Of a stretch of 25,836 nucleotides of DNA, positions 2,967 through 19,661 are shown in pieces (the stretch's first letter is position 1; every line of letters starts with the position of its first letter). The position numbers and the translations under genes were made by a program. The notes beneath the pieces were generated by a model. It was not told the DNA's origin, made no database searches, and saw nothing but the letters and a program-made list of their open reading frames with translations. Source of the DNA: a virus (lineage: Duplodnaviria; Caudoviricetes); IMG/VR virus record IMGVR_UViG_3300021432_000036, positions 1-25,836 of that record, one strand, 5' to 3'.

Positions 2967-2994
2967 GTTTTTTGTTTTTAATTGTTTATAAAAT

Positions 2995-3089
2995 AAAAAA
3001 TCCCCTTGATAGTGCAGCTATCTCAGGGATTAGTAAAGGCTTGCGCCAATATTTTTTTGAATTGCTGCACAATTCTATGCTCAAATATA
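2995..3089 (-). promoter_or_regulatory. Promoter plus kissing-loop leader/attenuator element A
   Basis: TATATTTG at 3082-3089, then hairpin GAATT-GTGCAGC-AATTC, then a GGC-GCAA-GCC tetraloop hairpin, then hairpin ATCCC..GATA-GCTGCAC-TATC..GGGAT followed by a U tract. The two loops are complementary. Confidence 0.6.
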
Positions 3090-3096
3090 CAAAAAT

Positions 3097-3128
3097 AAAA
3101 TGGGATAACAATTAAGTCATCCCATTTT
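3097..3128 (-). terminator. Intrinsic terminator after auxiliary capsid gene 2
   Basis: Stem AAAATGGGAT/ATCCCATTTT. It has the same ACTTAATTGT core as the terminator at 860-887. Confidence 0.7.
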
Positions 3129-3147
3129 TTATTATTAATCCTATTAA

Positions 3148-4827
3148 TTAAGAGGTAGGAAGTACATAAGTACCTGCTCCAGCACCAGTGCTTATAGCTG
3201 CTGCCGCTGTTGACAATAATCTACCTTCAAGTTGCGTATTAGCACCAGTAGTTTGACCTGCTGGAGAAAGAGAGTTTCCTTTCCAGATAGTGTTTGCTCC
3301 TGTTGTTAATGCTGCGCCTGATGCGAAGAAAATCCTTGATGCAACTGCTCCATTTAGCAATACAAAAGTTGTATTGGCTCCTGTGGTAATCGCACCGGGG
3401 AATATAAATACATAATCTCCAACTCCGCTAAAGGTAACTGTTCCTCCTGCTCCTGTTCCCGCTGCACCTGTTCCTTTAAAGATACCCGGATGGAATATAC
3501 CCGGACCATTACCTACGTCAACAGTTTCTAAAACAACTGCTCCCGGAATAAAGCTAAATGTTGGTGTTAATCCTGTCAATGTAGCATAAGTATTTGCTGC
3601 ATCATTAACTGCCGGAGTAGATGCTGGGGCTGGATAATCTGCACCAGAAGTAAATACTACCGAACCAATTATTGCGCCTGCTTGTCCTATATCTCCATTT
3701 ACTGGTTGTGCTGGTGTTCCAACTGTAAGAGCACCACCTGTAAGAATAACATAAGTAGTAGCTAATCCTAAAGAATAAGCTGGTGCTATTGGAACACCAT
3801 TACTATTTACCATTGTAGGGAAATTGGTAAGCATAACGGCTTGAAATGCTGCATATCCCGGTGCGCCCTCGTTTACATATAAAACCTGTACACGTCTTGC
3901 GGCAACGGTCGTTCCTGCTGCTGCATCATTTGGAACATTGTTAATATAATCTACTACAATATATTCTGTGTAGTTATTTGCTGCAATGATAGCTTCTGTT
4001 GTAGGGAAAGAAAATAATCCTTGAGCTAAATTACTACTCAACAATTCTAATTTAGGTACATCATCCACTAATCTTGTTCCAATACCTCTGCTAATAACGC
4101 CAGCGGTAGTGATAACTAAGTCTAATGATCCCCAACCTCTTGTTGCAAGTACTGTATTTGGTCCCTGTAAAAATCCTTTAGTATATGAAGAAAAATATAA
4201 ACCTGTATCTGTAATTCTAAGTCCCAATCCAATAGTAGGAGGAGCAGTAGTAAGTGCAGTAGCACCACTTGTTTGTCCTGTGATAGTTTCACCACTAATG
4301 AAATCACCAAAATAGTTAGCAATAGTTAAAACACCTGCTGCGTCCAATACCAAATAACCCTTTGCGCCTGACGTACCGCCTGTTACTACTTCATTAAAAA
4401 TAAATGTTCCAACTGTTGCTGCGTGAGCAATAGTTATTACCGAACCAGCAGTAGCGTGTGCGGAAGGAGTTTGATTTATTTTTTTTGCAAGTGCAATATA
4501 AATATTGTGTTTATCCTGAGCAGCGTTACCAGACAATAAAGCCGGAGCTGTTGCACTAAAGAAATCTATTGGAGTTTGTGCGCCTTCTCTGCGGTTTCCT
4601 GTGTTACCAATGGCAACTTGATAAATTGTGAATGGCGTAATTGCAGCGTTACTTGTAATAGTAACAACTTGTTTTACTTCTGGCGTAGAAGTAATTTTAA
4701 TAGCCGAAAGAACATTGGTTTGTTTTATAGGGAACCAGCCCGTAATATATACGTAACCTGCCGTTAAGACTGAATCTGCGGGGGTTTCATTATTGAGCAA
4801 TTGCGCTCGGACAACTTTTTCTCCCAT
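3148..4827 (-). CDS. Putative auxiliary capsid protein (paralog B) with C-terminal DUF3494 ice-binding-type domain
   Basis: aa 1-342 are paralogous to 913..1938. aa ~350-559 carry DUF3494 hallmarks in order: LGLATTYVILTG, VNGDIG, AVNDAANTY, FHPGIF, YVFIFPGAITTGA, VLLNGAVASRIFF, WKGNSL, LEGRLLS. Confidence 0.8.
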   Translation of the reverse strand: MGEKVVRAQLLNNETPADSVLTAGYVYITGWFPIKQTNVLSAIKITSTPEVKQVVTITSNAAITPFTIYQVAIGNTGNRREGAQTPIDFFSATAPALLSGNAAQDKHNIYIALAKKINQTPSAHATAGSVITIAHAATVGTFIFNEVVTGGTSGAKGYLVLDAAGVLTIANYFGDFISGETITGQTSGATALTTAPPTIGLGLRITDTGLYFSSYTKGFLQGPNTVLATRGWGSLDLVITTAGVISRGIGTRLVDDVPKLELLSSNLAQGLFSFPTTEAIIAANNYTEYIVVDYINNVPNDAAAGTTVAARRVQVLYVNEGAPGYAAFQAVMLTNFPTMVNSNGVPIAPAYSLGLATTYVILTGGALTVGTPAQPVNGDIGQAGAIIGSVVFTSGADYPAPASTPAVNDAANTYATLTGLTPTFSFIPGAVVLETVDVGNGPGIFHPGIFKGTGAAGTGAGGTVTFSGVGDYVFIFPGAITTGANTTFVLLNGAVASRIFFASGAALTTGANTIWKGNSLSPAGQTTGANTQLEGRLLSTAAAAISTGAGAGTYVLPTS

Positions 4828-4863
4828 GATTTTTAATTTTTAGTTTTTTGCTTTATAGCATTA

Positions 4864-4871
4864 CAAATATA
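4864..4871 (-). promoter_or_regulatory. -7 element TATATTTG
   Basis: TAnnTTTG 37 nt upstream of the ATG at 4827. Confidence 0.55.
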
Positions 4872-4878
4872 ATGCTTT

Positions 4879-5652
4879 TTATGATTTATTTGCTTCTGCT
4901 TCCGACCATTTAGACTTTGAGTAATTTTCTACTTCTCCAATAATTATAGACGCAGCCAATTTAGCTAATTCCTCATGAGTGCTTACTGGCAAATCAGTAT
5001 TAACTATATTAATTACAGTACCAATACCTGTTAGTGCAGTATTAACTGCAATAAATGTCTGTCCTACCTGATAGGTAATAGCATTATGTGTTACGGTATT
5101 TGTAGTAACATAATATGTTAATCCAATAGTAAGAACAGCCGGACCCGCCACTATAGGAACGGTAGATACAAATACTATTGCAGGAGCAATTAGATAGGTT
5201 AATATGGCACTACTAAAAGTACCAGTACCACCAAAGTCTACATTGATTCCATTTTGATCTTCAAAGTGTACAGGATATTCTATTGTGGGTTCTTGGAATG
5301 TATTACTCTTTATAATTCTATATTCATCATAAGATACCATACGACTACTTTTTTGTATTCCATTAACTATTGTATCAAAGCTGAGTTCGTGTTTGTAATC
5401 AGATGGGTAAGTAACTAAATTGCCTGAGGGAGTTAATGGAGCTGTCTTTACTAATGTACGAAGGTCATCACGTACCCTTTGAATAAATTCAAACGAATAC
5501 ATTTTATGCTGCTTGATATTATCATACCTGTCATAAAAGAATTGATCTATTGCTGTATTAACAGCATTGTCCTTTTCAATCTCTGTGAAGCGAGCAGAAC
5601 GGGCACGATCCACCCATTGCATCATTCTATTTTCTAATTCTACAATATTCAT
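4879..5652 (-). CDS. crAss-like tail ring protein
   Basis: Motifs FEFIQRVRDDLRTLVK and DLPVSTHEELAKLA resemble conserved crAss ring proteins. It is the second gene after the MCP. Confidence 0.7.
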   Translation of the reverse strand: MNIVELENRMMQWVDRARSARFTEIEKDNAVNTAIDQFFYDRYDNIKQHKMYSFEFIQRVRDDLRTLVKTAPLTPSGNLVTYPSDYKHELSFDTIVNGIQKSSRMVSYDEYRIIKSNTFQEPTIEYPVHFEDQNGINVDFGGTGTFSSAILTYLIAPAIVFVSTVPIVAGPAVLTIGLTYYVTTNTVTHNAITYQVGQTFIAVNTALTGIGTVINIVNTDLPVSTHEELAKLAASIIIGEVENYSKSKWSEAEANKS

Positions 5653-5680
5653 GATAGTAAGTTTTTATAAAGGTAAAAAA

Positions 5681-5710
5681 AATAGGCCAACAATTTCTTG
5701 TCAGCCTATT
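5681..5710 (-). terminator. Intrinsic terminator
   Basis: Stem AATAGGC..ACAA/TTGT..GCCTATT followed by a T run on the minus strand. Confidence 0.6.
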
Positions 5711-5729
5711 TCTTGTTCAAGCAATTAAT

Positions 5730-6656
5730 TTATTCAACTTCAAAAGATTCTGCATATCCTTTTTTAGCTAATGGATTCTTTTTATCTTCGACTTCTTTTT
5801 TAGCGGTTTCTACCGCTGCTTCTTTTGCCGTTTCTACTTTCTTTTCATTTCTGGCTTCTTCAACATAGAATATATCCTTCTCTTTCGATTCCGTATCAAT
5901 AAACACCATCATCTGTCTATCCTTGCGAAGGGAATTAACTATACCACCCTCAGTACTTCCAAGAGGAATGGTATTCTTAAACATATACCCTTTGTCAGGA
6001 GTAAGTTGGATAAGTCCAGTTGCCATACCACGCTGTATGATAACTTTAATATCTCTTTCTTCTTCATTTTCAAGCATACTCATAAAATAATCTGGCTTAT
6101 TCATAGCCTTCTCATAAAGCATCTGTTTGATAACAATGTAACTATTATTCATAGTATCAATAGCAAATAAACGTGCTATATCACGAATCTTAGTTTCAGT
6201 CATATCAGGTGCATTAATAAGTGCTACCGCATCCATAGATTTAACAACTGAATCAACTTTTGATTGAGCATCACGTTCTGTATCTATAACTTCAAACATG
6301 TGGAAACGTGTTCTGTTACCATCGCCACAGATAGCAGGATGATGTTTTACAACATGCCATTCTTTAGCATCTTGTTCTATCTCTAAATTGTAATGTCGGT
6401 GTCCATCAATTATAATGCGTTTGAACTTATATGTTCCATCTGCATTACGACCAATAGGAATACCATACCATACATCAGTATTAGGATTTCTCCATCCTCT
6501 GAAGGATAGTTGATTACTATTTAACTCTTTACCGTCTGTTGATTTTTTACTTCTTAACGGCTTAAGGATTACATTTCCTTTGCGTTGTATGTCTGAGAAG
6601 TCTACCAGATTTTGTTCTACCGGAGCGAAGCTCGGTACTGAAAATTGATTATTCAT
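5730..6656 (-). CDS. Conserved crAss-like protein downstream of the MCP (function unknown)
   Basis: 308 aa. Its position and the C-terminal 'IKVIIQRGMATGLI..Y.F....LG.T...IV..L' pattern match the gene usually found after the MCP in this group. Confidence 0.6.
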   Translation of the reverse strand: MNNQFSVPSFAPVEQNLVDFSDIQRKGNVILKPLRSKKSTDGKELNSNQLSFRGWRNPNTDVWYGIPIGRNADGTYKFKRIIIDGHRHYNLEIEQDAKEWHVVKHHPAICGDGNRTRFHMFEVIDTERDAQSKVDSVVKSMDAVALINAPDMTETKIRDIARLFAIDTMNNSYIVIKQMLYEKAMNKPDYFMSMLENEEERDIKVIIQRGMATGLIQLTPDKGYMFKNTIPLGSTEGGIVNSLRKDRQMMVFIDTESKEKDIFYVEEARNEKKVETAKEAAVETAKKEVEDKKNPLAKKGYAESFEVE

Positions 6657-6720
6657 TTTTATGTTTTTTAAATTATGAAGAGGGCTACCTCTTATCCGTT
6701 TAACAATAATTTAAGGAATT

Positions 6721-6753
6721 TTGGGGGAAGATGCTTAGCAACTCCTCCCCCAA
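6721..6753 (-). terminator. GC-rich hairpin just after the MCP stop (terminator or stabiliser)
   Basis: Stem TTGGGGGA/TCCCCCAA with an inner TGCT/AGCA stem. The U tract is weak. Confidence 0.45.
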
Positions 6754-6770
6754 TTTCCTACTCCTATTTT

Positions 6771-8243
6771 TTAGTTAGGAGATTTGTATATAATACCACA
6801 TGACATAGTATTGTAAATGAAGATACCATCTTCTTTCAGCATATTGAACTCAATAGCATCAGTAGAAGATACAACATCTCTGTTATCACCAGTTACACCA
6901 TTAAGGTATGCTGATACCATAGAACGATTAATTCCATAAGCACCTTTAGTCATAATCTCAATGTTGCTACGTCCTGCAACAGTACCCATATCAAGGAAAA
7001 TCATCATAGATGATTGTAGCAATTTACCATCGCTTCCACGTTGAGTAAAACGCTCTTCATCATCAAACATTGGATGTTTAACAGTAACGATTTGATTACC
7101 GTGAATGTTAAACACGTCGAAGTTACCTCCTACTGGAATATCTTCTCCTCCGATAGTTTGTGTTTGACCTGCATTTTGGTTAAGATTTGTACGACCACCC
7201 ATGAAATTAACACGGTAATCTCTAAACAAATCTTGTAGTGTTCCGTAACCATCAGTTCCAGTAACTACATACCACATTTTACCATATACGCTATTAGATT
7301 TCTTTTCTAATTGACGCATAAAGTCAGAGATGTCATCGATAGTAGCTGAACCATCAATGCCAGAACCGAACATTTCGTTTCCACCTTTGATTTGTTCTAA
7401 GATACCATCACCGATAACAACTTGTTCTCCAGTTTCAGGATCAATAACGTTAGAAACAGCTAACAAGTTATTGTTAGAATCTCTCATTGTTGATTTACCG
7501 AAGATTTTATTCCACTCATCTTCCATCATAAATTGAATACGTGCTTGACGTTCTTTTTCAAAGATCCATCCTTTAGCACCATTGTATTCATACCAAAGTA
7601 CATCAGTAAGTGCAGAACCAGAAAGGGCTACTGTCTTACGTTGAATACCTAAGTGGTTAATGAATTGGTCAGGATAATGAGTACGACCAAAACCACGAAG
7701 CGAACGTTCGCTATAAGCAGTAAATTGACCGAAACATGTTTTATCTCCTGACTGTGGAGTTACAGATGCAGCAAAGTTAAATACTGATTTGTCGATAGTT
7801 TGGAAACTATAAACGAAATTACCGGGACCTCCTGCTGGAAGACCTTGAACACGAGCTTGCAATCCATCCCAAAAAGTAACAATCATACCTTGTACGATAT
7901 AATTATCCTTTAAAGAAAGTTGGAAAGAACCATCAAGTCCAGAAGTACCCACTTGAGCACCAATAACTGTTTTCTTTTGAATACGACCTAATACATTGTA
8001 ACGGAAAGCATGATCTCCAATCAGTTTGTCTGCTGGAATTTTGCCAATCTTGTTACGTGTATTCATTCCTTGAAGATCCCAAGGAGATTTTGCACCTGAT
8101 ACGATCAAAGTTGAAAGCATACGAGGTTCTGCATACTGAATCACATCACGAATAACTGGTTTCTTTTGTTGATTTTCAGTAAGGTTACTTGATACTGTGC
8201 AGGTTTCATCGAACCTACCAGCATACACTTGAATTTTTCCCAT
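6771..8243 (-). CDS. Major capsid protein (crAss-like)
   Basis: 490 aa. Synteny is terL-portal-scaffold-MCP. Motifs YSERSLRG, NHLGIQRK, VVTGTDG and KHPMFDD fit crAss-type HK97-fold MCPs. Confidence 0.85.
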   Translation of the reverse strand: MGKIQVYAGRFDETCTVSSNLTENQQKKPVIRDVIQYAEPRMLSTLIVSGAKSPWDLQGMNTRNKIGKIPADKLIGDHAFRYNVLGRIQKKTVIGAQVGTSGLDGSFQLSLKDNYIVQGMIVTFWDGLQARVQGLPAGGPGNFVYSFQTIDKSVFNFAASVTPQSGDKTCFGQFTAYSERSLRGFGRTHYPDQFINHLGIQRKTVALSGSALTDVLWYEYNGAKGWIFEKERQARIQFMMEDEWNKIFGKSTMRDSNNNLLAVSNVIDPETGEQVVIGDGILEQIKGGNEMFGSGIDGSATIDDISDFMRQLEKKSNSVYGKMWYVVTGTDGYGTLQDLFRDYRVNFMGGRTNLNQNAGQTQTIGGEDIPVGGNFDVFNIHGNQIVTVKHPMFDDEERFTQRGSDGKLLQSSMMIFLDMGTVAGRSNIEIMTKGAYGINRSMVSAYLNGVTGDNRDVVSSTDAIEFNMLKEDGIFIYNTMSCGIIYKSPN

Positions 8244-8277
8244 AATTATTTAAACATTTTAAAAGGTTAGACAATAC

Positions 8278-9531
8278 TTAATAGCCGTTGCTGTCAACTG
8301 TGGCATTGTCCTTATCTACCTCTTCCCAAGCATCAAATGCACCAGCACCGACTTTTTTGGTTGAGACTTCTCGCCTTCCAGATGTTTCAGAATTACTTAA
8401 ATCCTTTGTGTTGTGTAACTTACCTTGTATGTCATCACGACCCTTTTGAAATGAAGTTTTCTTCAACTCTTTTAAAGCATCTTGCCCTAAATACTTATTC
8501 AGCATAAAATCAACAACGTCTTTCGAGTTACTTTGAAACGCCTTGCGTACTTCACCCGATTCCCATTGTTTCTGTATATACTGACGAGCATTGTCAGGTA
8601 TTTTAAAACCCATGAATGTTTTGGTTTCTGCCAAAATATTTAATACTTCTTTACTTTCTTTTTCATATTGCTGTTGCAACATGGTAGTTCTTGCGGCAGC
8701 TTCGTTTTTAGCATCTTCTACTATTTGACTTTCCGTAGTTGCACGTACATTTTCTAAATCTTTGCGTAGTCCGTAGGCTTCACTTTCTAATTTGCCTTCG
8801 TCTTTAAGGATTTCCATCTTTTCATCAATCCGGTCAGCCTCCCATCCTCTCGCTTCAAAATCTTTACGCAAAAGAGATTCGTTATCTAATACCAGAACTT
8901 CATCAATTCTTTTTAATGGATTGATAAAATCTTCGATTGTATTTTGTGGATTAGCATTTAAGTATTCAATAGCCTTTTGAGCCTGTGGAGTTAGCTTTTC
9001 TAACTCTATTTTACTTGCTTCTGCCTTTCCTTCTTCTCTTGCTTGTTGTTTAATAGTATCTATCGATTCTTTGAAAGCCTCGTAACTGTCTTCCTTGAGC
9101 TCTATACCTAAATCTTTGCCTAAAGTGGACCATGTGCTTTCTGATTCGTCGGATTTTTCAAGTTTAAATCTTGTTTCATCGATTGCAAGTTCTGGAGCCT
9201 TATCTTCTTCGCTAATATCTGTATCCTTTCCAGCAGTGTCATCTTTTTTTGCTTCCTTCTTAATTTCAGCAGTAGTTTCTGGAGTTTTTTCTGCATCTTT
9301 TTTCTCTTTTTCCTCGTCCTTTTGTTCACTTTTAGGCTCATTGGATAATTCTTTTTCTAATTCATCGAAACCTTTGGTAGTAGATGCCTCTTTTGGCATT
9401 TCTTCTACCGATTTGAATGAATCTTGAGTGTTTGAATCTTTATTTACATCATCAAATCCAGAAAAATTGTCTTTTGGTGATGTATTTTCATTTGCTTGCT
9501 CTGTGGCAGCGGTACTTTCTTCCTTTTCCAT
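8278..9531 (-). CDS. Putative capsid scaffolding/assembly protein
   Basis: Acidic low-complexity N-terminus and coiled-coil C-terminal part, immediately upstream of the MCP. Confidence 0.65.
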   Translation of the reverse strand: MEKEESTAATEQANENTSPKDNFSGFDDVNKDSNTQDSFKSVEEMPKEASTTKGFDELEKELSNEPKSEQKDEEKEKKDAEKTPETTAEIKKEAKKDDTAGKDTDISEEDKAPELAIDETRFKLEKSDESESTWSTLGKDLGIELKEDSYEAFKESIDTIKQQAREEGKAEASKIELEKLTPQAQKAIEYLNANPQNTIEDFINPLKRIDEVLVLDNESLLRKDFEARGWEADRIDEKMEILKDEGKLESEAYGLRKDLENVRATTESQIVEDAKNEAAARTTMLQQQYEKESKEVLNILAETKTFMGFKIPDNARQYIQKQWESGEVRKAFQSNSKDVVDFMLNKYLGQDALKELKKTSFQKGRDDIQGKLHNTKDLSNSETSGRREVSTKKVGAGAFDAWEEVDKDNATVDSNGY

Positions 9532-9553
9532 TTTTGTTTGGCTTTAGGTTAAA

Positions 9554-10039
9554 CTAACTATTCATATCGTACTGATCGATAAATTTTTTATCTGATTTTG
9601 GCGTTACCTTTGTAGAAGTAGCTTTAGTTACTGGTTTAGCACCATTCTTTTTTACTACTTTACCCCCCTTTTTTAACATATCATACTTGTCTATAATAGC
9701 TTTCTTATCAGACTCTGGAGTTGCTTTAGTGGATGTTGCTTCAGATACGGTCTTTCCTCCGCCTTCTTTTGCTTCTACCTTACTTCCATCTGCATATCCG
9801 TTCTCTTCCGATTCTTCATGTTCCGTTTTTGCAGAAATTATTTTAAATTCAGCACACATTGATCCATCTTCTTTTTTACGGATAGATGTTTGTTCTACTT
9901 TAAGTTGAACAATATATTCTTCTCCAACTGTCCAATCTTTTATCTCTGGTAATTCTGCATCTGTCAATACAAGAGTATTTGGAAAGTCGAAAATAGATTT
10001 CAACATTGCTTTTGCGGGTGGTAATTTCTTGTCTGCCAT
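9554..10039 (-). CDS. Hypothetical head-module protein with duplicated C-terminal motif
   Basis: Compact beta-rich N-terminal ~70 aa, then two copies of K.V..ATSTK.TP.SDKK..ID.YDM, plus a KKGGKV motif. Confidence 0.6.
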   Translation of the reverse strand: MADKKLPPAKAMLKSIFDFPNTLVLTDAELPEIKDWTVGEEYIVQLKVEQTSIRKKEDGSMCAEFKIISAKTEHEESEENGYADGSKVEAKEGGGKTVSEATSTKATPESDKKAIIDKYDMLKKGGKVVKKNGAKPVTKATSTKVTPKSDKKFIDQYDMNS

Positions 10040-10045
10040 AATTTT

Positions 10046-10279
10046 TTATTTTTTATTTGTTTCCCATGCTCTGATAGTTCCTTTGGCATCCCAAAGCGCA
10101 CAGCATTCTCTTTTAGTTACTGGTTGATTAACTTTTTCGTTAATACAAAAGTTATCTTTAAAATATTCGCAGTTAGAGCAGTTTGTCCCGGTTATACTTG
10201 GAGGGAGAGTTATGAGGTCTACGTTTTTAGCCTTTTTTAAATCTTCTGTTAAAGAACTCTTTTTCGGTGGCTTATTCAT
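10046..10279 (-). CDS. Small HiPIP-like Cys-motif protein
   Basis: NCSNCEYF-x4-C-x8-V-x4-CCALW resembles the HiPIP CxxC..C..CxxW ligand pattern. Confidence 0.5.
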   Translation of the reverse strand: MNKPPKKSSLTEDLKKAKNVDLITLPPSITGTNCSNCEYFKDNFCINEKVNQPVTKRECCALWDAKGTIRAWETNKK

Positions 10280-10372
10280 GCAAATATATTAATTTTTTAA
10301 TTAACTGTACAACTACTACTTATCAACGGTTATATAAAGGATTACTTTAAGTCAAAAAAAAGGCAAAAAAAT

Positions 10373-12625
10373 TTACGCTCCCTTACCTTGATTTTTTATA
10401 AAATCATTCGCTGCTTGCTGTGAATTTAACACATGTTGATTCTGCGCCTTCACCGTTTCAGCGGCAATTTTATTTGTTCCTTTTTGCACTTCCATTTCTT
10501 TTTGATGTTCAAACATTCTCTCATTCATTCCAGCTTGTCCTTCCTGAGCTTGTTGTGCCTGTTGCGCCTGAGCCTGTTGTTGTGCCTCTTGTTGTTGTTG
10601 ATTCATTGTCTGCACTTCTTTCCATCCTTGCTTAACGCAAGCAACCGCTTCTGTCATAGTTTCTGCAAGTTCAAAACCAAGAGCATCCTGTACTCTCATC
10701 TCTTTACTATTAAGAGCAAATTCCATAAGGCCACGAATACGATTTTTAATCTCCTCTTCTTTTCTATTATCAGCTAAATAATATCCGTAATCATCGTAAC
10801 TAATATCTTTTGTAATCTTTAAGAATCCTACCGCATCATCACCTATTATCATTCCCAATTTATCAGGATGAGTAAATACGGTAATCTTAGAATATTCCGC
10901 AACACGTATCAAAATATTTTCTACATACCTATCGAAATAATAATTAAGAGGCTCTGTAATATTTCTTGATCCCTGTACTGCCAACTGGGCATTACCGGAT
11001 GTTTGACTTGCCGCTATTTCACCTTGTCTTTCGTTAGATATTCCAGACAAACGGTCTGCCATATCCTGAAGTTGAACTTTTAGAGTAAGCAGTACTTGCA
11101 TGTTAGAAGAAATACCTAAATCTATTTCACGAATAGAGCCCTGTACCTCTACGCTTGTTCCACTCATATTGCCATCAGCAGAAGAATCATAATCATAAAT
11201 ACCATCGTTGGTAAGTTTGTGCATTACATCCTTCATGGTCTTCCCTTTTGGAAGATATGCTCTATCGTATGTAACCACTTTACCTTTTGCTTTAGCAAGT
11301 TCCCTATTGATCTGGAACATGATAATATTATATATCCTACTTATATTTTCTAATGATTCTAAAATAGAAATACGTATGCCATCCCTTGTATTGAGTAGCA
11401 TGCCAGTATAAGAATACATAGTATTAAATGGATTATCTAAAGAGCCAATTATATTCGGTTTCTCACGCATATTAACGTACATGTCTGCACCTATACGTGT
11501 TGCTTCCCAGATAATCTTTTTGTATTTAGTTTCTATTGTATATTTTCCTTTATTCACATCACTTTGTATCTGGCTATAATTTTTATTATAATAGTCAAGT
11601 GATATAGATTGACGGTAAGGTTCTGCATCAATATTTCGTGGGTCCTTTGATACTTTAGTATAGAATGGCTTTAAAGCATACCACTCTAAAGTATAAACCA
11701 TAACTGCTAAATTCTTTTCTACTAACCGATAGTTCATCCTCCATTGTTCGGAAGATGTATTTACGTTTTGATCCCAACGATCTCTTATCTCATAAAGATT
11801 TTTCTTTTGGTCATCGCTTAATTCAAATTCAGAAAGTATGTCGTGAATGAACATCAAACGAGCTTCTCCCAAATAAGGTGTTTGTCCTAAAAACGGATCA
11901 CGTTCAATCTCTTCCCATATACCATTACGGGGATCAATTTCTCTGAACCGCACATTTCCATCCTTGTCTATTGACACTTTACCAAAACATTCTGCTGTGA
12001 TAAGTACATCTAAATAGTTAGAAGCGAAACGAGTTTTTACATCCTGACCGTAATGATTATTTTCTATAAAGTTTTTTATTAAAGTTTGCATAACAACTTC
12101 GTTACGCTCCTTAATATTAAAGTCTGGCTTTGCGGTAGCTTGATCTGCGCCATCTGCCTGTTTAACTTCCGGCATAGGCATGCCTTCAAAAACATCGTAA
12201 CCTACTAATTGTTTTTGTTTTTCTAATTGCTCTTGCGCTGCTTGTCTGCCTAATAAAAATTCGTAGTTCTGAAGTTTACGTGAACGGGCTTCCTTGTTGA
12301 TAGTATATACTGTTCCCGAAAGTGGTCGTGATAAAAATTCTCCTACCAATCCATCTATCTTAGGGCGTGCCATACGATAGTCTATGTAATTGGCTAAATT
12401 CTCCTTCCCGTATGTCCTGTTCAAATACTCGAAATTCCTTGCGTCCGTAATACCATTGTAGGAATCCATAAGCAATGTCATCTTCTTTATCTGCCTTCTG
12501 CGGTATCCGTTATAGTTATTAACTGCGTAATCAATGCAGTCTTTACAAACCTGCTCTTGCTTATCTATATTCTTGTGTTCGTAAATCTGGGTTCCAACGA
12601 ACCGCTCAGGAGTGCTACTTGACAT
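10373..12625 (-). CDS. Portal protein
   Basis: 750 aa, between terL and the MCP. Contains PKIDGLVGE, LSGISNERQG and a Q-rich C-terminal barrel. Confidence 0.9.
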   Translation of the reverse strand: MSSSTPERFVGTQIYEHKNIDKQEQVCKDCIDYAVNNYNGYRRRQIKKMTLLMDSYNGITDARNFEYLNRTYGKENLANYIDYRMARPKIDGLVGEFLSRPLSGTVYTINKEARSRKLQNYEFLLGRQAAQEQLEKQKQLVGYDVFEGMPMPEVKQADGADQATAKPDFNIKERNEVVMQTLIKNFIENNHYGQDVKTRFASNYLDVLITAECFGKVSIDKDGNVRFREIDPRNGIWEEIERDPFLGQTPYLGEARLMFIHDILSEFELSDDQKKNLYEIRDRWDQNVNTSSEQWRMNYRLVEKNLAVMVYTLEWYALKPFYTKVSKDPRNIDAEPYRQSISLDYYNKNYSQIQSDVNKGKYTIETKYKKIIWEATRIGADMYVNMREKPNIIGSLDNPFNTMYSYTGMLLNTRDGIRISILESLENISRIYNIIMFQINRELAKAKGKVVTYDRAYLPKGKTMKDVMHKLTNDGIYDYDSSADGNMSGTSVEVQGSIREIDLGISSNMQVLLTLKVQLQDMADRLSGISNERQGEIAASQTSGNAQLAVQGSRNITEPLNYYFDRYVENILIRVAEYSKITVFTHPDKLGMIIGDDAVGFLKITKDISYDDYGYYLADNRKEEEIKNRIRGLMEFALNSKEMRVQDALGFELAETMTEAVACVKQGWKEVQTMNQQQQEAQQQAQAQQAQQAQEGQAGMNERMFEHQKEMEVQKGTNKIAAETVKAQNQHVLNSQQAANDFIKNQGKGA

Positions 12626-12645
12626 CTAATTTTGAATTAGTTTAT

Positions 12646-12653
12646 CAAAAGTA
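12646..12653 (-). promoter_or_regulatory. -7 element TACTTTTG
   Basis: TAnnTTTG 21 nt upstream of the portal ATG. Confidence 0.5.
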
Positions 12654-12663
12654 CGAAAAAATA

Positions 12664-13182
12664 TTAAATTATATTAGGACTGCAAAATTCCCCAAAATAT
12701 TTTTCACATGCCTTATTATATGCAATCGCAGCATGCTCTTCTGTTTTATGTGATCCTAAATGAATAGCTATGCCATTAACCTTTATTCCACATTTCCATG
12801 ATTTATAAATATATAAACTTCCATCTTTTCTTATTCGTTTTTTAATTGCTAAAGAAACACCTTTATATTTTGATGAAGCATTTTTTTGTTTTCTTTTATT
12901 CATTGCATTTTGACTCGTAGTGCTTGGCCTTAAATTATGCCTTTGATTATCAAGTCCATTTTTATTTTTATGATCTGTATTTTTTTGACCAGTAATATCT
13001 TGGTGCATCATGCTATATTTTCTTATATCGTCTTCATAAACAGATCTTCTTGCATATAAATTATTCTCGTCTGGAAGTAAATGGTAATTATACTTACTTA
13101 ACCTTTCATAGTCTTCATCATCAACCATTGCAAAATATTTTCCTTTACTTGGCCCTTGTTTAGATAATTCAATTAATTTCAT
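12664..13182 (-). CDS. Free-standing HNH homing endonuclease with AP2 domain
   Basis: HNH motif MHQ..DHKNKNGLDNQRHNLR..QNAMN. AP2 motif SSKYKGVS...HLGSHKTEEHAAIAYN..FGEF. Confidence 0.9.
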   Translation of the reverse strand: MKLIELSKQGPSKGKYFAMVDDEDYERLSKYNYHLLPDENNLYARRSVYEDDIRKYSMMHQDITGQKNTDHKNKNGLDNQRHNLRPSTTSQNAMNKRKQKNASSKYKGVSLAIKKRIRKDGSLYIYKSWKCGIKVNGIAIHLGSHKTEEHAAIAYNKACEKYFGEFCSPNII

Positions 13183-13195
13183 AATATTTATAAAT

Positions 13196-13284
13196 AAAAA
13201 CGCTTTGCCTTTCAGGGTAGTGCATCCTTACTCAGCAAAGCGATTAATAAGTTTTAGTCGGCACTACTCGACTATATAAATATA
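13196..13284 (-). promoter_or_regulatory. Promoter plus kissing-loop leader/attenuator element B
   Basis: TATATTTA at 13277-13284, then hairpin TAGTCG-AGTAGTGC-CGACTA, then hairpin CGCTTTGCT-GAGTA-AGG-ATGCACTAC-CCT-GAA-AG-GCAAAGCG followed by a U tract. Loops GTAGTGC and GCACTAC are complementary, and there is a loop-E-type AGUA/GAA internal loop. Confidence 0.65.
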
Positions 13285-13292
13285 CAAAAAAT

Positions 13293-15314
13293 TTATGTAA
13301 TCTTCCCTTGTGCTATTAAGCGAAGAAATGGATCTTTGATTTCCGACAACTTTTCTTTTGATACTATTGGTCGAAGATGTCCTCCCTCTCTTGAATATGT
13401 TGTTAAGTCATAAGGGTCCTGTGAAATTTCCTGTTGTAAATTTATTGGCTTTTTATTTATATCAGTATGCCTCATAAGTGCTATACCTAAAGCATCAGCA
13501 GCATCCCAATCGGAATCCTTTTGTAACTGATCGTAGTTAAGCAAGTCATCTATCAGATATTTAAACCAGATTTTGTGTCCGTTATATGCAACAAATGTTT
13601 GTAGTAATGATACCATGCGAGGCTTACTAAGTCCAGTAAGGGCTACACCAAATTCATGGGTCTGCTGTGAATTTTCACTTTCAAAACTTGTTGGGCGTGG
13701 TGCTAAATATTTTTGGCAGCCTTTGTCTTTGTAGTATTGTATCACAGCAGCCTTTGCTATATCCACCAAAGTATTTCCTATAAGATTATAATAGATAGAA
13801 AGTTTCAAACAATTTTCATAAAATATTTCTTTGTGCTTGGGGCGATTACGTATCATGGCAATAGGGGACATACTATCCAATCCGGGTATCATGTGTTCAC
13901 GTATCAACACAACCATAGATCCTAATGATTTACTTGTTTGTGAACTGTCCTGATCGTAACTGTCAAGCCCAGAACAATATAAATTCTTGTATCCTAAAAC
14001 AGGAGTATATCCCGGACGAATAAATATTATATTATCTTCCGGCTCTAATTCATCAGCAATCTTTGCTTTAACTTTAAATGGTGTCTTAATACTTCCATCA
14101 TCATTCTTTTCCCACTCCAAAATATATTTTAAGTATGGAGTTGTTGGTGAACTGTCAATAGCATATCCTTGATTGGATAAAATAGTACTGTCGAAATTAT
14201 TACTACTGAAAGTTAAGAATGCTTCCTTGTCTGTTAATGGATAATTCTGTAAATAGTCATAATACTTTTTCTTATTGCGCCCTTTAACAAGTTCTCGTCT
14301 TGTTTCCATTATCACCTTCTCTGCCTCATGTATATCTTCGCAACCGCTAATATTATTATTGCTATCTTTTAATTTTTTTATATTGGGTATGTGTTCTTCC
14401 AATTTGCCCTTCTCATTTTTACTTCCTCCGAAGTACCCAACCATCATACGGGGGCCCATAATTTCAAACTTCATTAATCCGTAATTGTCTGCCTCCAGCC
14501 ACATATCCCTAAAGTCGTGTGATGAAGATTTTATATCTCCTCCAGTGCCGTATAGATACGGAGTTCCGACCATCTTTGTTCCTACCATGAAGCAAGCCTT
14601 AGTAGCATTATATCCTGCTATCAAGTGATCGAACTGCCCGGCCTCCTCAAATATTACATCATTGAACGCATTACCCTTAAAAATATCCGGGTTGTTGTAC
14701 ATGGTCTCGCAGATAACAGTATTAAGACTACCTCTGCTTACCTCCCCGGTATTTGTCATTTCTGTATATCCACAAACCAATTCTTTTGCATTATCTTTTA
14801 AATAGTGCATTTGTAATTCTTTTGGCAAATCTTTATTTACCTTCTTCACCTTATCGAATAATTCCTCACTATACGTTTCTTGCCCGGCGCATATACCTGC
14901 TTTGTATCCTGAATTAGAAAAACGTATTCCATAATCTAAAATAGATTTGCTCTTTTCGCTCATACCTTTACGCCTTGCCTTGATACATATAATTCCTTTG
15001 TTATCTTTTTTTGCTTGCTCTATGAAGTTGAAGTATTCAAGATCTATATCTACAAATTCAGGATGGTGAAGTCCACGACCTACTGTGCTGATAAGAATAA
15101 AATTCAGGTAGTAATAATATCTTCCGGGAATGAATACGCCTCCGGTGGTGTAACCATTTAGGATTCTATGTAGTTGTTCTTTCCACCATTCTTCGTGGGC
15201 CATTGTACCAACAATGGTATGGTTGAGTGTAGAATTTGCGTAATCTGGAATACCATTAACAGCTATCTCGTTGGGGAAAAAACCACGCTTTTTTATTAAT
15301 GGTGTATATGGCAT
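13293..15314 (-). CDS. terL: Terminase large subunit
   Basis: Walker A-like IKARRKGMS, Walker B VIFEEAG, coupling motif YGTGG, and nuclease motifs GLDSYD and DWDAADALG. Confidence 0.92.
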   Translation of the reverse strand: MPYTPLIKKRGFFPNEIAVNGIPDYANSTLNHTIVGTMAHEEWWKEQLHRILNGYTTGGVFIPGRYYYYLNFILISTVGRGLHHPEFVDIDLEYFNFIEQAKKDNKGIICIKARRKGMSEKSKSILDYGIRFSNSGYKAGICAGQETYSEELFDKVKKVNKDLPKELQMHYLKDNAKELVCGYTEMTNTGEVSRGSLNTVICETMYNNPDIFKGNAFNDVIFEEAGQFDHLIAGYNATKACFMVGTKMVGTPYLYGTGGDIKSSSHDFRDMWLEADNYGLMKFEIMGPRMMVGYFGGSKNEKGKLEEHIPNIKKLKDSNNNISGCEDIHEAEKVIMETRRELVKGRNKKKYYDYLQNYPLTDKEAFLTFSSNNFDSTILSNQGYAIDSSPTTPYLKYILEWEKNDDGSIKTPFKVKAKIADELEPEDNIIFIRPGYTPVLGYKNLYCSGLDSYDQDSSQTSKSLGSMVVLIREHMIPGLDSMSPIAMIRNRPKHKEIFYENCLKLSIYYNLIGNTLVDIAKAAVIQYYKDKGCQKYLAPRPTSFESENSQQTHEFGVALTGLSKPRMVSLLQTFVAYNGHKIWFKYLIDDLLNYDQLQKDSDWDAADALGIALMRHTDINKKPINLQQEISQDPYDLTTYSREGGHLRPIVSKEKLSEIKDPFLRLIAQGKIT

Positions 15315-15326
15315 AATAATATTTTG

Positions 15327-15651
15327 TGGAGCTGGTGGGAATCGAACCCACGTCCAATATATTTAATTAATTGATTTTATTTAAAGGCTTAGGATATGAT
15401 TTACTAACCATCCAAAATCGGGGTCGATAATTTACCAACCTCTCCACCAGTTAGTTTAATGTTCTAACAAACCACAGAGCTTCTGTTCCCAAAAACTGCT
15501 TACGCAGCCGCTCTCATTTCGGTTATCATTTCGATAACTGGCACATTTTTAGTTTTGCCATTTAATTGTGAAAATAATTTATTAATCGGATATTAACAGC
15601 CGATGCCTTAACCAAAGAACGAACCTATACTGTCAAAAGCCTGTCAGCCCC
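15327..15651 (-). ncRNA. ssrA: tmRNA (transfer-messenger RNA)
   Basis: 5' end GGGGCTGA-CAGGCTTTT-GAC. 3' T-arm GTGGG-TTCGATT-CCCAC followed by CAGCTCC-A. The acceptor stem GGGGCTG/CAGCTCC has the G3-U alanine determinant. The tag frame at 15559-15500 reads GKTKNVPVIEMITEMRAAA*. CCA is not encoded (CAA follows). Confidence 0.93.
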
Positions 15652-15654
15652 TTT

Positions 15655-16191
15655 TTAATCTATTTCAACTATTCCTTGTCTACTCTGTGCAGCTTTAAAA
15701 TCACGCATGTTATTTTGCCACTTCTCTATCCATGTCAGTTCACCTCCACCACGTAATTGTTCTATGTCATCACTCTGATCGATTTGTTTCTGTAACTTAT
15801 CTATCCTATCACCCAAACGCTCTATCGCATCATCTATCTCCTTAATAGTCTTTGCCTTTGTTTCATCGAGCATAGCATCGGACAATAATTTTATTTTGCC
15901 CTTGTACTTAATAACCAATTCCCTGTTATGATCGTACTGCAAACCACGATAGCAGTCAATAGCACTACGTATAACTACACTATCTATTTTATATTTGCTA
16001 TCTCCCCAGACGTGATGCTTTGCCCTGCGTTGCCTTTCTTCTTCCGGCAACTGGTGATAAGGTGAATGATAATCTACAAAAATAATTGTGTAAAGCAATT
16101 CGTCTTCTGTCAGGTCCTTAAACTCAGGACACAACAAAATAGCATCTTTATTTAGTATAACCTTTTTAGATTTGTCGAGAGAGAATAACAT
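15655..16191 (-). CDS. Conserved protein upstream of terL, candidate terminase small subunit
   Basis: 178 aa, helical/coiled-coil, with ELLY.IFVDYHSPY...ERQ. Assignment rests mainly on position. Confidence 0.5.
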   Translation of the reverse strand: MLFSLDKSKKVILNKDAILLCPEFKDLTEDELLYTIIFVDYHSPYHQLPEEERQRRAKHHVWGDSKYKIDSVVIRSAIDCYRGLQYDHNRELVIKYKGKIKLLSDAMLDETKAKTIKEIDDAIERLGDRIDKLQKQIDQSDDIEQLRGGGELTWIEKWQNNMRDFKAAQSRQGIVEID

Positions 16192-16979
16192 TATAATGTT
16201 TGTAGATTATTGTCAGATAAAAAAAGCTCTTTGCTCTTACCATAACTCTTCATTATCATTTTTGCTTCATATAGCATAAAGGGAGCTGGTATCACCTGAT
16301 AAAGCTCCGGATTAATCTCCGGTATGAAAACTATATTTATCCTGCGTGTCTTATAATTAAATTGCCTCTTAAGCATATAGGCATAAGAACTTAACTGAAG
16401 CGCATAGCGTGAATAGCTACAATCACTCAAATGACTTACCGGCTTCTTTAAATACTTACCACGCTTACTATAAAATTCTATTTCACCTTTACTCAAACTC
16501 GTTTTCCAGTCGTACATATCAACAACACTCCTACCTACATAACCAAGATAATCAGTACACCCTGCCACATTATACTCATCAAGATACAAAACCTGCTGAC
16601 AAAAACCCTTCTTATAAGTTCCAAAAATCTCTACCTGCATCCGATCCAACATCTTCTCATACCCTACCGCCTTACTCCCATCCAATAAATATTGCTCTAT
16701 AACACCATCCACAAAACTACCAAAGTCAGTACTGCGTTTATTCTTTTCTTCCCAACCCTTCAAAATACTTTCCTGCCGTATAGTTATCTCTTCATCATTC
16801 TCATTACACTCCAATCTCATTTGACTCTTTGCCATAGACCACGATATAATATTCTTATTGAAATCATTCTTCACACTATCCAATACCCAACTCACCCTAT
16901 CGTACTTCCTACCACCTTCCCCAAAGTACGTATTCTCCAAAGGATCCAAAAATACGCTATGTTCTATCAGCTTCTTCAT
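16191..16979 (-). CDS. PD-(D/E)XK (Cas4/RecB-like) exonuclease
   Basis: AGCTD...MYDWKT and YALQLSSYAYML motifs. Start moved to the ATG at 16979 (MKKLIEHS), which follows the upstream stop at 16981. Confidence 0.8.
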   Translation of the reverse strand: MKKLIEHSVFLDPLENTYFGEGGRKYDRVSWVLDSVKNDFNKNIISWSMAKSQMRLECNENDEEITIRQESILKGWEEKNKRSTDFGSFVDGVIEQYLLDGSKAVGYEKMLDRMQVEIFGTYKKGFCQQVLYLDEYNVAGCTDYLGYVGRSVVDMYDWKTSLSKGEIEFYSKRGKYLKKPVSHLSDCSYSRYALQLSSYAYMLKRQFNYKTRRINIVFIPEINPELYQVIPAPFMLYEAKMIMKSYGKSKELFLSDNNLQTL

Positions 16980-16980
16980 A

Positions 16981-17229
16981 TCACTCTTGAAAATATTTTT
17001 CTCTGTCCACATCCCTCTCAAAAATAAAAACATCTATACGTATACAACTCTCCTTAACCACCTCAAACAAATTAATCACACTACCTCCAACTATCTTCAC
17101 CTCTACCTCAAATGGCCTGCCTTCACCCAACTCCTCACCCATCCTATAGCTATCTTCCAGATACCTATCGTAATCATCAAGATTACCATAAATCCCATAC
17201 TGATTATATATACCCTTTTCCTTTAACAT
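16981..17229 (-). CDS. Hypothetical protein (82 aa)
   Basis: A-rich start context, and it abuts the next gene. Confidence 0.55.
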   Translation of the reverse strand: MLKEKGIYNQYGIYGNLDDYDRYLEDSYRMGEELGEGRPFEVEVKIVGGSVINLFEVVKESCIRIDVFIFERDVDREKYFQE

Positions 17230-17386
17230 TATTTTACATTTATCCTAAAAGTTAAAGGTGCTCCGATAGGATAAAGATCAATCTAACCTAACAAGCACCT
17301 CTCACTTCTCTAATTAAAAAAAGGCTTACACCCAATACAAAAATAAATCTTTTCCCTTTTACTTCAACATAAACAAAAAAAAGATA

Positions 17387-17701
17387 TTAACTACCCATCA
17401 ACTGCGGATTACTATTAAACAATCTAAACCACTGCTGACTTTGTAGTGCCTCCAACTCCGTATTCCATCCTCCCTTAAACTCCTGCATCACAGTAAAGAA
17501 ATTCAGATTACCATCACGACCAACATAATTATTATGCCCGGCCTTCGTTACCTGTATCCAATATTGTCCCGCCACAAACACTACCCCTATACTAACCCCA
17601 ATATCCGTAATACTTACATCCAACACTCCATTCGGCGTCGGAAAACCTACCGCTACCGTCGGATAACCAACAGTTGCCATTTCTACCATTACATCTTGCA
17701 T
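17387..17701 (-). CDS. Hypothetical protein (104 aa)
   Basis: ATG in A-rich context, with a TATATTTG promoter element at 17740-17747. Confidence 0.6.
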   Translation of the reverse strand: MQDVMVEMATVGYPTVAVGFPTPNGVLDVSITDIGVSIGVVFVAGQYWIQVTKAGHNNYVGRDGNLNFFTVMQEFKGGWNTELEALQSQQWFRLFNSNPQLMGS

Positions 17702-17739
17702 ATCTTTAAATTTTAAAAGTTAATTACTACTCCTATTCA

Positions 17740-17747
17740 CAAATATA
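17740..17747 (-). promoter_or_regulatory. -7 element TATATTTG heading the packaging operon
   Basis: TAnnTTTG 39 nt upstream of the ATG at 17701. Confidence 0.55.
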
Positions 17748-17749
17748 AT

Positions 17750-18782
17750 AATTTTTATACTGATGTATATTCCAATAATCTATAATTACATTATGTCTGC
17801 ATAATCACTATTCCTATAATTAATTTATATGGATGTAATAACAATACCCCCTACCCACTCTGCCAAAACACTAGGGACGGCTGCCGATAACCGGGGGTCT
17901 TAAAATTCAGAGCAAGAAAAAAGTTAAAGTAATTTCTTTTAAAGGTTGGGATGGTAGGCTCTCCGTCTGAAAGCTATTTTGGTTTTGAATGTATGTACAT
18001 ACTGTTTTGTTGGCTTGCCAGATGATTGCCTAAATTATATGTGCCTGCCGTATATGTTTTGACATTGTATGTATATACATTTGAGACAATAAATTGTCGT
18101 GGAACAATTGCGTGGAACATAACAACGTAACTCATTGAATCCCAGTAAATTTAGACAAGCCTAAAATATTCTACATAAACACCTGATTGTTAATAAAATA
18201 AACCTATTTATATGAAGTATTTGATTAATCTTCATTAAACATTCATAATTAATTTACTAAAATTACTTTTGCTCTTAACTTATTGATTTTTAATTAGTTT
18301 GAAGCATAAATGAAGAGACAAATATATCTTTTTAGATAGTTTATGATATTGAATAGTATTAATTTGGGTATATTATTTGGTTTATGCTTTTATTTTTTTT
18401 TAGTAGATTGTTTTGAGTTAATATACTTGTAATTAATAGTATATTACTGGTAATTACTTATAATATATATATAATACTTGTTATACTGGTTATATAGTTA
18501 CTATTAGTTATTAACTGGTATATTATTGCTTATACTGATGTACTTACCAAGTATATAAAAGGTAATATATAAGTAATTACTTGTAAATTACGACGGCAGC
18601 TTGTAAATGTCCGTAGATTGCATTAGCTGCATTTTTTGGGTTGGTTGATACTTTGGTGTGTTTTAGTGTAGATAGTGTCTTAAATAGCGAACGTATACAT
18701 AAATTAGCCCTTTTAAATTACATTATACATAGTTAAGTTGTCCAATAATCCCGAACAATTCATTTTTAATCAAATTAGAGGC
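17750..18782. other. Long AT-rich non-coding region; candidate packaging/terminus or origin region
   Basis: No ORF of 60 aa or more. Contains an ACCCCC/GGGGGT inverted repeat at the skew flip, IHF-like boxes and short direct repeats. Confidence 0.5.
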
Positions 18783-19091
18783 TTACCAATAACGTTTTTT
18801 GCGTTTCTTCTTCTTTTTGAGTTTAACCTTTCGGGCTAAAGATATTTTCTTCTTGTATTTGCCCTTTTTATTCTTCACATATCCATACTCTTTTTGATGG
18901 CAATTTTTACATAAAATCTTTAAGTCTTCCGGTTCTTCATTAAATATATTTTTATATGTTAAATGATGAATTTGCAACCTTTTAGTATTGCCACAATCTT
19001 CACATTTTTTACCCCTAATGTTAAACAAATCAATTCTAATTTGCGCCCACTCATTACTATTTAAATAATCCTTATATTTTTTGTCAATCAT
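18783..19091 (-). CDS. Small Zn-binding HNH endonuclease (McrA/gp74-like)
   Basis: YLNSNEW...CEDC...LQIHHLTY...DLKILCKNCH, followed by a basic tail. Confidence 0.85.
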   Translation of the reverse strand: MIDKKYKDYLNSNEWAQIRIDLFNIRGKKCEDCGNTKRLQIHHLTYKNIFNEEPEDLKILCKNCHQKEYGYVKNKKGKYKKKISLARKVKLKKKKKRKKRYW

Positions 19092-19297
19092 ATATAATTA
19101 CCGTTAATTATTGAGTGTATATTTTTCCGAGAACCACCAAAGAAAAAAGAACAGAAAAGTAACAAACACTAAAACAATAGTAAAGAGAATAAAAAAGAAA
19201 AGCCCTCCACAAAAGACTATTCTCTGCAATTAGATTGCCTTGGCCTGATCCAAGTAATGTTTATTTACAAGTTTGGTCTGTTTGTAGCTTTGACTTA

Positions 19298-19495
19298 CTA
19301 CTTATTGGTATTATACCCATAAAAGATTTTAGGAGGTTTTAACTCTTTCCTATTCTTTCGCCTGTTTTGCTTTTTAGTTAAACGCTTTACTTTGCCCTTA
19401 ACTAATCGCTTAATACCATACATAACACCGAGCGTTAAACCAGCTGTTCCATTTGCACGATATAATTCTAATTGTTGTTGTTTAGTAAGTCCCAT
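19298..19495 (-). CDS. Small basic hypothetical protein (65 aa)
   Basis: Start reassigned to MGLTKQQQ at 19495, because the upstream ATG lies inside RNA element C. Confidence 0.5.
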   Translation of the reverse strand: MGLTKQQQLELYRANGTAGLTLGVMYGIKRLVKGKVKRLTKKQNRRKNRKELKPPKIFYGYNTNK

Positions 19496-19503
19496 AAACC
19501 ATA

Positions 19504-19661
19504 TAAAACACAAAACCCCACCAGTTTCCTGACAGAGTTCTTGCATGGCATGGGCTTTGCTCGGTTTTACCCGATTCGGTTTTTACACCGCAAAATATTT
19601 TTATTTGTTATTTAGAACTCTGTCAAAAGCCTAATAACACAACAAAACTATAACAAATATA
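19504..19661 (-). promoter_or_regulatory. Promoter plus kissing-loop leader/attenuator element C
   Basis: TATATTTG at 19654-19661. Hairpin 19606-19639 presents TGACAGAGTTCT. Two small CGG..CCG hairpins follow. Hairpin 19511-19559 presents AGAACTCTGTCA (12-nt complement) and is followed by a U-rich tail. Confidence 0.6.

Follow-up and report, generated by a model that had tools for sequence, protein, structure and literature searches.

The three leaders in the window

The window analysed here, that is, the whole 25.8-kb virus record IMGVR_UViG_3300021432_000036 (25,836 nt), carries on its minus strand three short promoter-leader elements, called elements 1, 2 and 3 below, in which a -7 promoter box is followed by two hairpins with mutually complementary segments. 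Because the same strand encodes a Crassvirus-type major capsid protein (PF23898), a portal protein and a large terminase, together with a transfer-messenger RNA (tmRNA), the window is, as judged from its sequence, a crAss-like phage. A longer record of the same phage (loci L018 and L019) supplied about 22 kb of extra sequence. The parts of the three elements are as follows.

3097-3128, minus strand: terminator-like hairpin closing the upstream virion gene, just 5' of element 1
3082-3089, minus strand: element 1, predicted Bacteroidota -7 promoter box TATATTTG, a match to the consensus
3059-3075, minus strand: element 1, hairpin 1, with the complementary segment GTGCAGC at 3064-3070
2991-3031, minus strand: element 1, hairpin 2 (2999-3031) and U-rich tail, with GCTGCAC at 3012-3018; predicted intrinsic terminator
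13277-13284, minus strand: element 2, -7 promoter-like box TATATTTA, 9 nt past the terminase stop codon
13255-13274, minus strand: element 2, hairpin 1, 6 bp with the 8-nt loop AGTAGTGC; kissing segment at 13261-13267
13192-13242, minus strand: element 2, hairpin 2 (13201-13242) and U tail, with GCACTAC at 13217-13223; predicted intrinsic terminator
19654-19661, minus strand: element 3, predicted -7 promoter box TATATTTG
19606-19639, minus strand: element 3, hairpin 1, in which a 12-nt complement (19614-19625) spans the loop and the 3' strand
19561-19590, minus strand: element 3, a pair of small hairpins with GUAAAA loops
19501-19560, minus strand: element 3, hairpin 2 (19510-19560) and U-rich tail, with the complement at 19530-19541; competes with a nested long-range helix

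All three elements lie where the initial annotation had placed them, with a -7 box, hairpin 1, hairpin 2 with its U-rich tail and an ATG after 15-35 nt. The boxes (TATATTTG at 3089 and 19661, TATATTTA at 13284) match the Bacteroidetes -7 consensus TAHHTTTG (PMC6847099), and the complementary segments are those described, GTGCAGC/GCTGCAC in element 1, GTAGTGC/GCACTAC in element 2 and TGACAGAGTTCT/AGAACTCTGTCA in element 3. Folding z-scores are -2.4, -2.3 and -3.3, respectively. A promoter-anchored scanner found exactly these three matches in the window, compared with two across 40 block-shuffled windows; its thresholds were set with the three elements in view, and the independent test is the relaxed scan of 196 loci presented below. 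Neither the window nor the additional 22 kb, which held no match at all, has a scanner match ahead of structural genes, as had been noted for the window at the outset. An unanchored version of the scanner was discarded, as it gave false matches in coding regions and missed element 3.

The complementarity of loop 1 to loop 2 (whose pairing is termed the kiss), claimed for all three leaders, holds for elements 1 and 2. The cleanest case is element 2, in which a 12-nt linker follows hairpin 1, and hairpin 2 consists of a 9-bp stem, an AGUA/GAA interior loop, which we take to be of the sarcin-ricin or loop E type, a 3-bp stem and a 9-nt loop, followed by the U tail. Its kissing halves are 37 nt apart. 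In element 1 the loops are 5 nt long and the halves lie 45 nt apart. In element 3 the 12-nt complement is nested and does not pair loop to loop in the predicted fold; the nested helix (-42.7 kcal/mol, against -38.2 kcal/mol for the terminator fold) is predicted to destroy both hairpins, and the halves are 72 nt apart. A single architecture common to the three, as initially proposed, can thus not be upheld, element 3 being built on a different plan.

A family of kissing-loop leaders

The letters of the kissing segments, referred to here as the code, were used to look for further copies. The code of element 2 retrieved 50 stretches, and inspection revealed the full layout at 13 loci including the window, two of which carry the compensatory code GTGGTGC/GCACCAC. 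Among the 21 stretches retrieved with the code of element 1 the layout fits only in the window's own, and the hairpin pattern of element 3 matched 12 stretches containing itself and no homologue. Loci were also fetched by protein, blind to the code, with terminase, NUMOD4-HNH and HNH-AP2 queries and with NUMOD4-HNH in genomes. The relaxed scanner gave 63 distinct matches in 196 loci of less than 42% G+C (2.24 Mb, the window and 12 code-selected loci included), whereas four shuffled sets gave 1, 0, 0 and 0. In the terminase loci alone the strict scanner found two distinct matches, which is not above the shuffles (3, 0 and 2); both are located immediately ahead of HNH-AP2 genes. Among 80 genome loci there were three matches in the 26 labelled Bacteroidota and, in the other 54, two poorly formed ones with no downstream open reading frame (ORF). 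Leaving out four of 68 scanner matches without a downstream ORF (L206, L247, L338 and L390) gives the set of 64 elements used below.

A covariance model, R1, was built without the kiss, and 38 matches were aligned to it. In the alignment, of 37 sequences, the kiss helix shows 96.7% pairing, and both sides have changed at six of its seven pairs; its overall covariation score was reached by none of 500 shuffles, a control that ignores relatedness, and sliding the partners lowered the score from 0.54 to at most 0.20. The expectation that the structure persists while the sequence changes is thereby borne out in homologs. Element 2 scores 72 bits against R1, as a member of the training set, and belongs to this widespread family; element 1 (22.6 bits, E 0.11) fits the family layout only, and element 3, with no match past its promoter, is a singleton, a related idea on a different plan.

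The kissing halves are separated by 36-53 nt in 63 elements, a narrow spacing that fits pairing in cis. The 3' hairpin is terminator-like, as stated initially, with at least six T among the 8 nt that follow the last G-C pair in 59 of the 64 elements, and it ends a median of 14 nt before the ATG. The interior loop is AGUA/GAA or has GA-rich strands in 37 of 55 elements; loops and interior loop fall into several mutually unrelated sequence types. In the modelled subfamily G-C, U-A and G-C predominate at positions 1, 2 and 4 of the kiss, respectively. There is no ligand-like conserved core, with 49 codes found among 53 elements (the 11 code-selected ones left out). A 7-8-nt copy of loop 1 is present at the start codon in four (L166:1704, L168:2851, L178:6732 and L194:1711; p about 0.001) of 56 members, that is, the 64 elements less eight near-identical code-selected ones, so that loop 2 has a choice of partners there, one upstream and one across the start. 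Opposite-strand TAnnTTTG boxes are not enriched at the leaders (10 over 15 bins, about 1.2 expected per bin). No match to R1 was obtained in five genomes, nor in 151 genomes of the order of a Flavobacterium genome, the latter with only 27 candidates per genome scored and without a positive control, so that it carries little weight; the leader itself had no match in the 'phages' collection.

Two other structures were observed at HNH genes. The first, seen by eye and termed here the second leader class, comprises a promoter and a branched hairpin with a U tail, whose internal loop is complementary to two short repeats 3' of the tail, the second of which adjoins the ATG; it lies directly 5' of HNH genes at 11 loci (L174, L176, L180, L197, L202, L209, L216, L218, L253, L298 and L315). 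The other is a long hairpin about 100 nt before position 3001 in L009, L010 and L015, with a loop complementary to the bases just 5' of the HNH-AP2 ATG.

Downstream genes and mobility of the cassettes

The genes following the three leaders, and the neighbouring features that bear on them, are listed below.

2739-2966, minus strand: 75-aa ORF, phrog_6161/5861, no assigned function; first gene after element 1
2008-2733, minus strand: HNH_3-AP2 endonuclease, 241 aa, phrog_99
12664-13182, minus strand: HNH-AP2 endonuclease, 172 aa, phrog_99, between the terminase and portal genes, after element 2
12646-12653, minus strand: promoter-like box TACTTTTG ahead of the portal gene
19298-19495, minus strand: 65-aa basic ORF after element 3; no Pfam/PHROG match (62 residues scanned)
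18783-19091, minus strand: small HNH protein, PF01844, 207 nt beyond the 65-aa ORF
15324-15651, minus strand: phage-encoded tmRNA (RF00023, 77.7 bits), directly 5' of the terminase gene

An HNH gene had been reported directly or one small ORF downstream of each leader, which is correct for elements 1 and 2. The HNH_3-AP2 protein behind element 1 is likely a free-standing homing endonuclease. The HNH protein behind element 3 belongs to a family other than that of the first two; given the 207-nt gap and a hairpin with a U run preceding the gene, it may not share the element 3 transcript, and its link to this leader is doubtful. With the promoter-like box TACTTTTG in front of it, the portal gene would be independent of read-through from element 2. 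More distant relatives have no detectable HNH gene between terminase and portal (0 of 72 junctions), and the element 2 cassette is therefore likely an insertion. A metagenome scan for close relatives returned the window's own contig only and no empty alleles for its cassettes.

That the leader travels with a mobile nuclease, as had been surmised, is supported by filled and empty alleles in relatives. In L080 there is new sequence after the capsid gene, comprising a terminator, a promoter, a leader and an HNH-AP2 gene. The last codons of this HNH-AP2 gene repeat the end of the capsid gene as it stands in the empty allele L082, and the sequences are identical thereafter; the whole cassette, from the recoded end of the capsid gene through the terminator, promoter and leader to the HNH gene, was inserted as one unit within the last capsid codons. 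The same site is filled in L059 and empty in L091, and in L054 it holds a NUMOD4-HNH gene with a leader of a different code. It is also worth recording that this capsid 3'-end site (L054, L059 and L080 versus L082 and L091) hosts two nuclease types, HNH-AP2 and NUMOD4-HNH. The idea of guiding or target sensing was dropped: a stretch near the L080 insertion site partly resembles the L080 code, but L059 has no such counterpart, and there is no enrichment of codes around cassette ends.

The leader is not specific to HNH genes, contrary to what the window suggested. HNH genes follow 41 of the 64 elements (L258 counted), but most loci had been fetched by HNH queries. Among the 28 bystander elements nine precede HNH genes, two precede GIY-YIG or T5orf172 genes, and for 11 the first or second gene is annotated by PHROG as a replication initiator, loader or primase-helicase, with three weaker candidates besides; a recognised virion gene follows none of the 28. 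None of the window's own leaders heads a replication gene. The downstream proteins (HNH, GIY-YIG, T5orf172, DnaD-like, methylase) are unrelated, and the same code precedes different nuclease architectures and a helicase. As nucleases and replication genes of varied kinds lie downstream, the leader is not the partner of one protein. An ORF of 58-74 aa was seen between leader and replication initiator in L135, L197 and L237 (phrog_33177), as well as in L193, L209, L234 and L333; in the first three a small hairpin with AAAACC on its 3' side, resembling the small hairpins of element 3, precedes its ATG.

Several other features of the window and its relatives were recorded. A paralogous gene pair (3148-4827 and 913-1938, minus strand) lies on either side of the element 1 cassette, the longer gene with an extra ice-binding-like domain (PF11999), and a pentapeptide-repeat protein is encoded at 22619-23284 (plus strand) within the plus-strand gene block. 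Related terminases of about 1060 aa (P0002, P0029 and P0068) contain PF14890 and PF14528 domains, which we take to be an intein and LAGLIDADG, that is, another mobile nuclease at the terminase gene. One soil metatranscriptome (8% of words) yielded seven short contigs, none over the leaders, and is uninformative on leader transcripts. Three of the seven map to 17435-18235; the region 17700-18790, about 1.1 kb, is very A/T-rich and almost devoid of ORFs.

Relation to known RNA elements

The leader family is real and absent from Rfam: there was no match over any element of the window or in 16 family loci, and none at gathering score in 10 more. In fold it would work like the guanidine-IV riboswitch and in control perhaps like the P4 CI RNA, and it is a member of neither. 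In guanidine-IV (the mepA motif) the loop of a 5' hairpin pairs with the loop of the terminator hairpin, and this kiss hinders completion of the terminator and favours read-through (PMC11611296). The phage leaders share the complementarity between loop 1 and the terminator-hairpin loop (elements 1 and 2, element 3 loosely), but differ in lacking an Rfam match or a conserved aptamer, in their varying loop letters, and in the genes downstream, which are phage nuclease and replication genes instead of guanidine exporters.

Leader-borne complementary segments in front of replication genes are a feature of the P1/P7 C4 antisense RNA and of the P4 CI RNA, through which P4 controls its replication genes. 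The segments seqA and seqC are the partners of CI (PMC4825925). The phage leaders resemble these systems in carrying such segments ahead of replication genes and, in the four members with a start-codon copy, none of which is in the window, in offering loop 2 partners on both sides. The P4/P1-like flavour noted initially is thus retained in the members where loop 1 recurs at the start codon and in the many leaders that head replication operons. In contrast, the phage leaders are only about 80 nt long, with two hairpins and usually one partner, they have no match to the C4 model RF01695, and they occur in phages of Bacteroidota instead of Proteobacteria, c4 RNA being listed for Proteobacteria and phages only (PMC2864571, Table 1).

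The antisense-controlled attenuators of the plasmids pT181 and pIP501 differ in that no enriched opposite-strand promoter is found at the phage leaders. In both of these the terminator lies in the leader of a replication gene, specificity resides in loop letters and control is exerted by a counter-transcript. In T4 the free-standing HNH homing endonuclease gene mobE, which is promoterless, is limited by an intrinsic terminator (PMC2790892); the phage cassettes bring their own promoter, and the abstract on mobE makes no mention of a kissing loop.

No description of the kissing-loop leader was found in the literature searched. The main texts of PMC5737381, PMC10690425 and bioRxiv 2026.09.22.753630 mention neither kissing loops nor HNH genes, and that of PMC10690425 does not discuss the candidate DNAVirus_8377 either, a statement that extends to neither the supplement of the first nor the alignments of the second, both of which could bear on novelty. 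The supplementary table of Fremin et al. 2023 (PMC10690425) lists DNAVirus_8377, an RNA of 105 nt with a predicted terminator, 88 sequences and Bacteroidetes hosts, located upstream of HNH_3, NUMOD4, AP2 and GIY-YIG genes, a profile that agrees with that of the leaders described here. Compared by its table description only, it may be either the kissing-loop leader or the second leader class; the family has possibly been catalogued once, without interpretation.

A possible mechanism and its alternatives

The reading we favour, with somewhat less than even confidence, is that these portable promoter-leader modules are attenuators in which the kiss is the read-through state, and that an element's own short terminated RNA shuts off transcripts of the same code. 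Loop 1 would capture loop 2 as the latter leaves the polymerase, the kiss would hinder completion of the lower terminator stem and the gene would be expressed; in a few members the kiss would also keep loop 2 off the start codon. The terminated RNA of about 75-80 nt, or a fragment cut in the A/U-rich linker, would then accumulate with loop 2 free, and this loop could bind loop 1 of newly made same-code transcripts and bring about their termination. Nuclease or replication protein would thus be made in a pulse when the phage enters a cell, with code-specific shut-off thereafter; element 3 might reach the same end through its longer nested antiterminator helix. Three features point to the kiss as the ON state, namely the guanidine-IV topology, the start-codon copies of loop 1 and the pairing of element 3 against its terminator fold. 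As the OFF trigger we favour the RNA that an element itself yields by termination or processing, which would act on transcripts of the same code, because there is no ligand core and no counter-promoter and because many copies head replication operons. Against the initial suggestion that the leader RNA keeps nucleases off, the kiss more likely promotes expression. In a stronger form, which we consider possible but doubtful, the leader would be a minimal self-recognising switch, an 80-nt RNA that is both cis antiterminator and its own trans repressor, with a loop code of 6-9 nt defining incompatibility groups.

Several observations weigh against this reading. By a rough estimate of reach, the kiss and the full terminator are sterically exclusive in only 10 of 63 elements, so that strict steric exclusion had to be abandoned as a general rule. 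Ordinary stems covary as much as the kiss (double changes at 4/4 and 8/8 pairs), a downstream copy of loop 1 is lacking in 52 of the 56 members, the window's three included, and many related HNH genes have no leader: the strict scan found it at 12 of 78 NUMOD4-HNH loci and 4 of 79 HNH-AP2 loci, with more members seen by eye. The codes had been described as orthogonal, and indeed none of 28 ordered pairs within loci cross-pairs over 6 bp; this is expected anyway from a background of 2.2%, from which it is indistinguishable, and selected orthogonality was not retained. Elements 1 and 2 are not fully orthogonal either, since 5 bp can form between their loops.

An alternative is a purely cis-acting throttle or timer, in which the kiss competes with the terminator during transcription and sets a fixed read-through fraction, or is lost on cutting of the A/U linker, and the codes drift neutrally through compensatory changes. 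The narrow spacing of the halves, the equal covariation of the stems, the absence of excess orthogonality and the restraint of T4 mobE by a plain internal terminator (PMC2790892) all agree with such a device, which is a real though lesser possibility. Stem strength alone could nevertheless set the leak, without a tertiary helix of 7-9 bp or the structured interior loop seen in 37 of 55 elements, and those members in which loop 1 recurs at the start codon point to a toggle. The estimate of reach could also mean that the kiss locks the OFF state, by stabilising hairpin 2, with stronger termination and a blocked start region, or by protecting a stable small RNA: kiss and terminator can coexist in 53 of the 63 elements, and hairpin 2 ends close before the ATG, where structure lowers translation in Flavobacterium (PMC6847099). 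We regard this as unlikely, since the pairing in element 3 disrupts the terminator, the start-codon copies make the kiss a de-repressing partner and the guanidine-IV precedent runs in the opposite direction.

That precedent would equally allow for a sensor of a host signal, be it a small molecule, an ion, temperature or a host RNA-binding protein, shifting the balance between kiss and terminator. The shared topology, the recurring non-canonical interior loops and the preferred pairs at kiss positions 1, 2 and 4 speak for it, but there is no Rfam match and the loops and interior loop are of several unrelated sequence types, unlike a ligand pocket, which makes a sensor improbable. Least probable is an RNA that binds or guides the nuclease, as an antitoxin or guide RNA. 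The initial annotation had entertained binding to the nuclease, and the frequency of the leader before HNH genes, inflated as it is by the queries, and its co-mobility with them are in line with this; the unrelated downstream proteins, the occurrence of one code before different nucleases and a helicase, and the lack of code enrichment near cassette ends speak against it.

Biological significance

How crAss-like phages and others of Bacteroidota time their replication genes and selfish nucleases is a little-known area, for which the leader provides a defined and widespread RNA element. If it acts only as a cis throttle, it is still a family of RNAs with a covarying pseudoknot that Rfam does not contain. 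Should the trans step of the favoured attenuator be true, the leader would constitute a compact, protein-free immunity or dosage circuit in which riboswitch-like folding is combined with antisense logic of the P4 type, and it would supply orthogonal regulators for Bacteroidota. If it is indeed a self-recognising switch, phages of Bacteroidota would use it to time replication or to keep replication silent. Homing endonucleases would then have taken it over as a plug-in promoter module, a newcomer with a fresh code being expressed despite cassettes already shut off, and the family would amount to about 50 orthogonal attenuators, a natural library for work in Bacteroidota.

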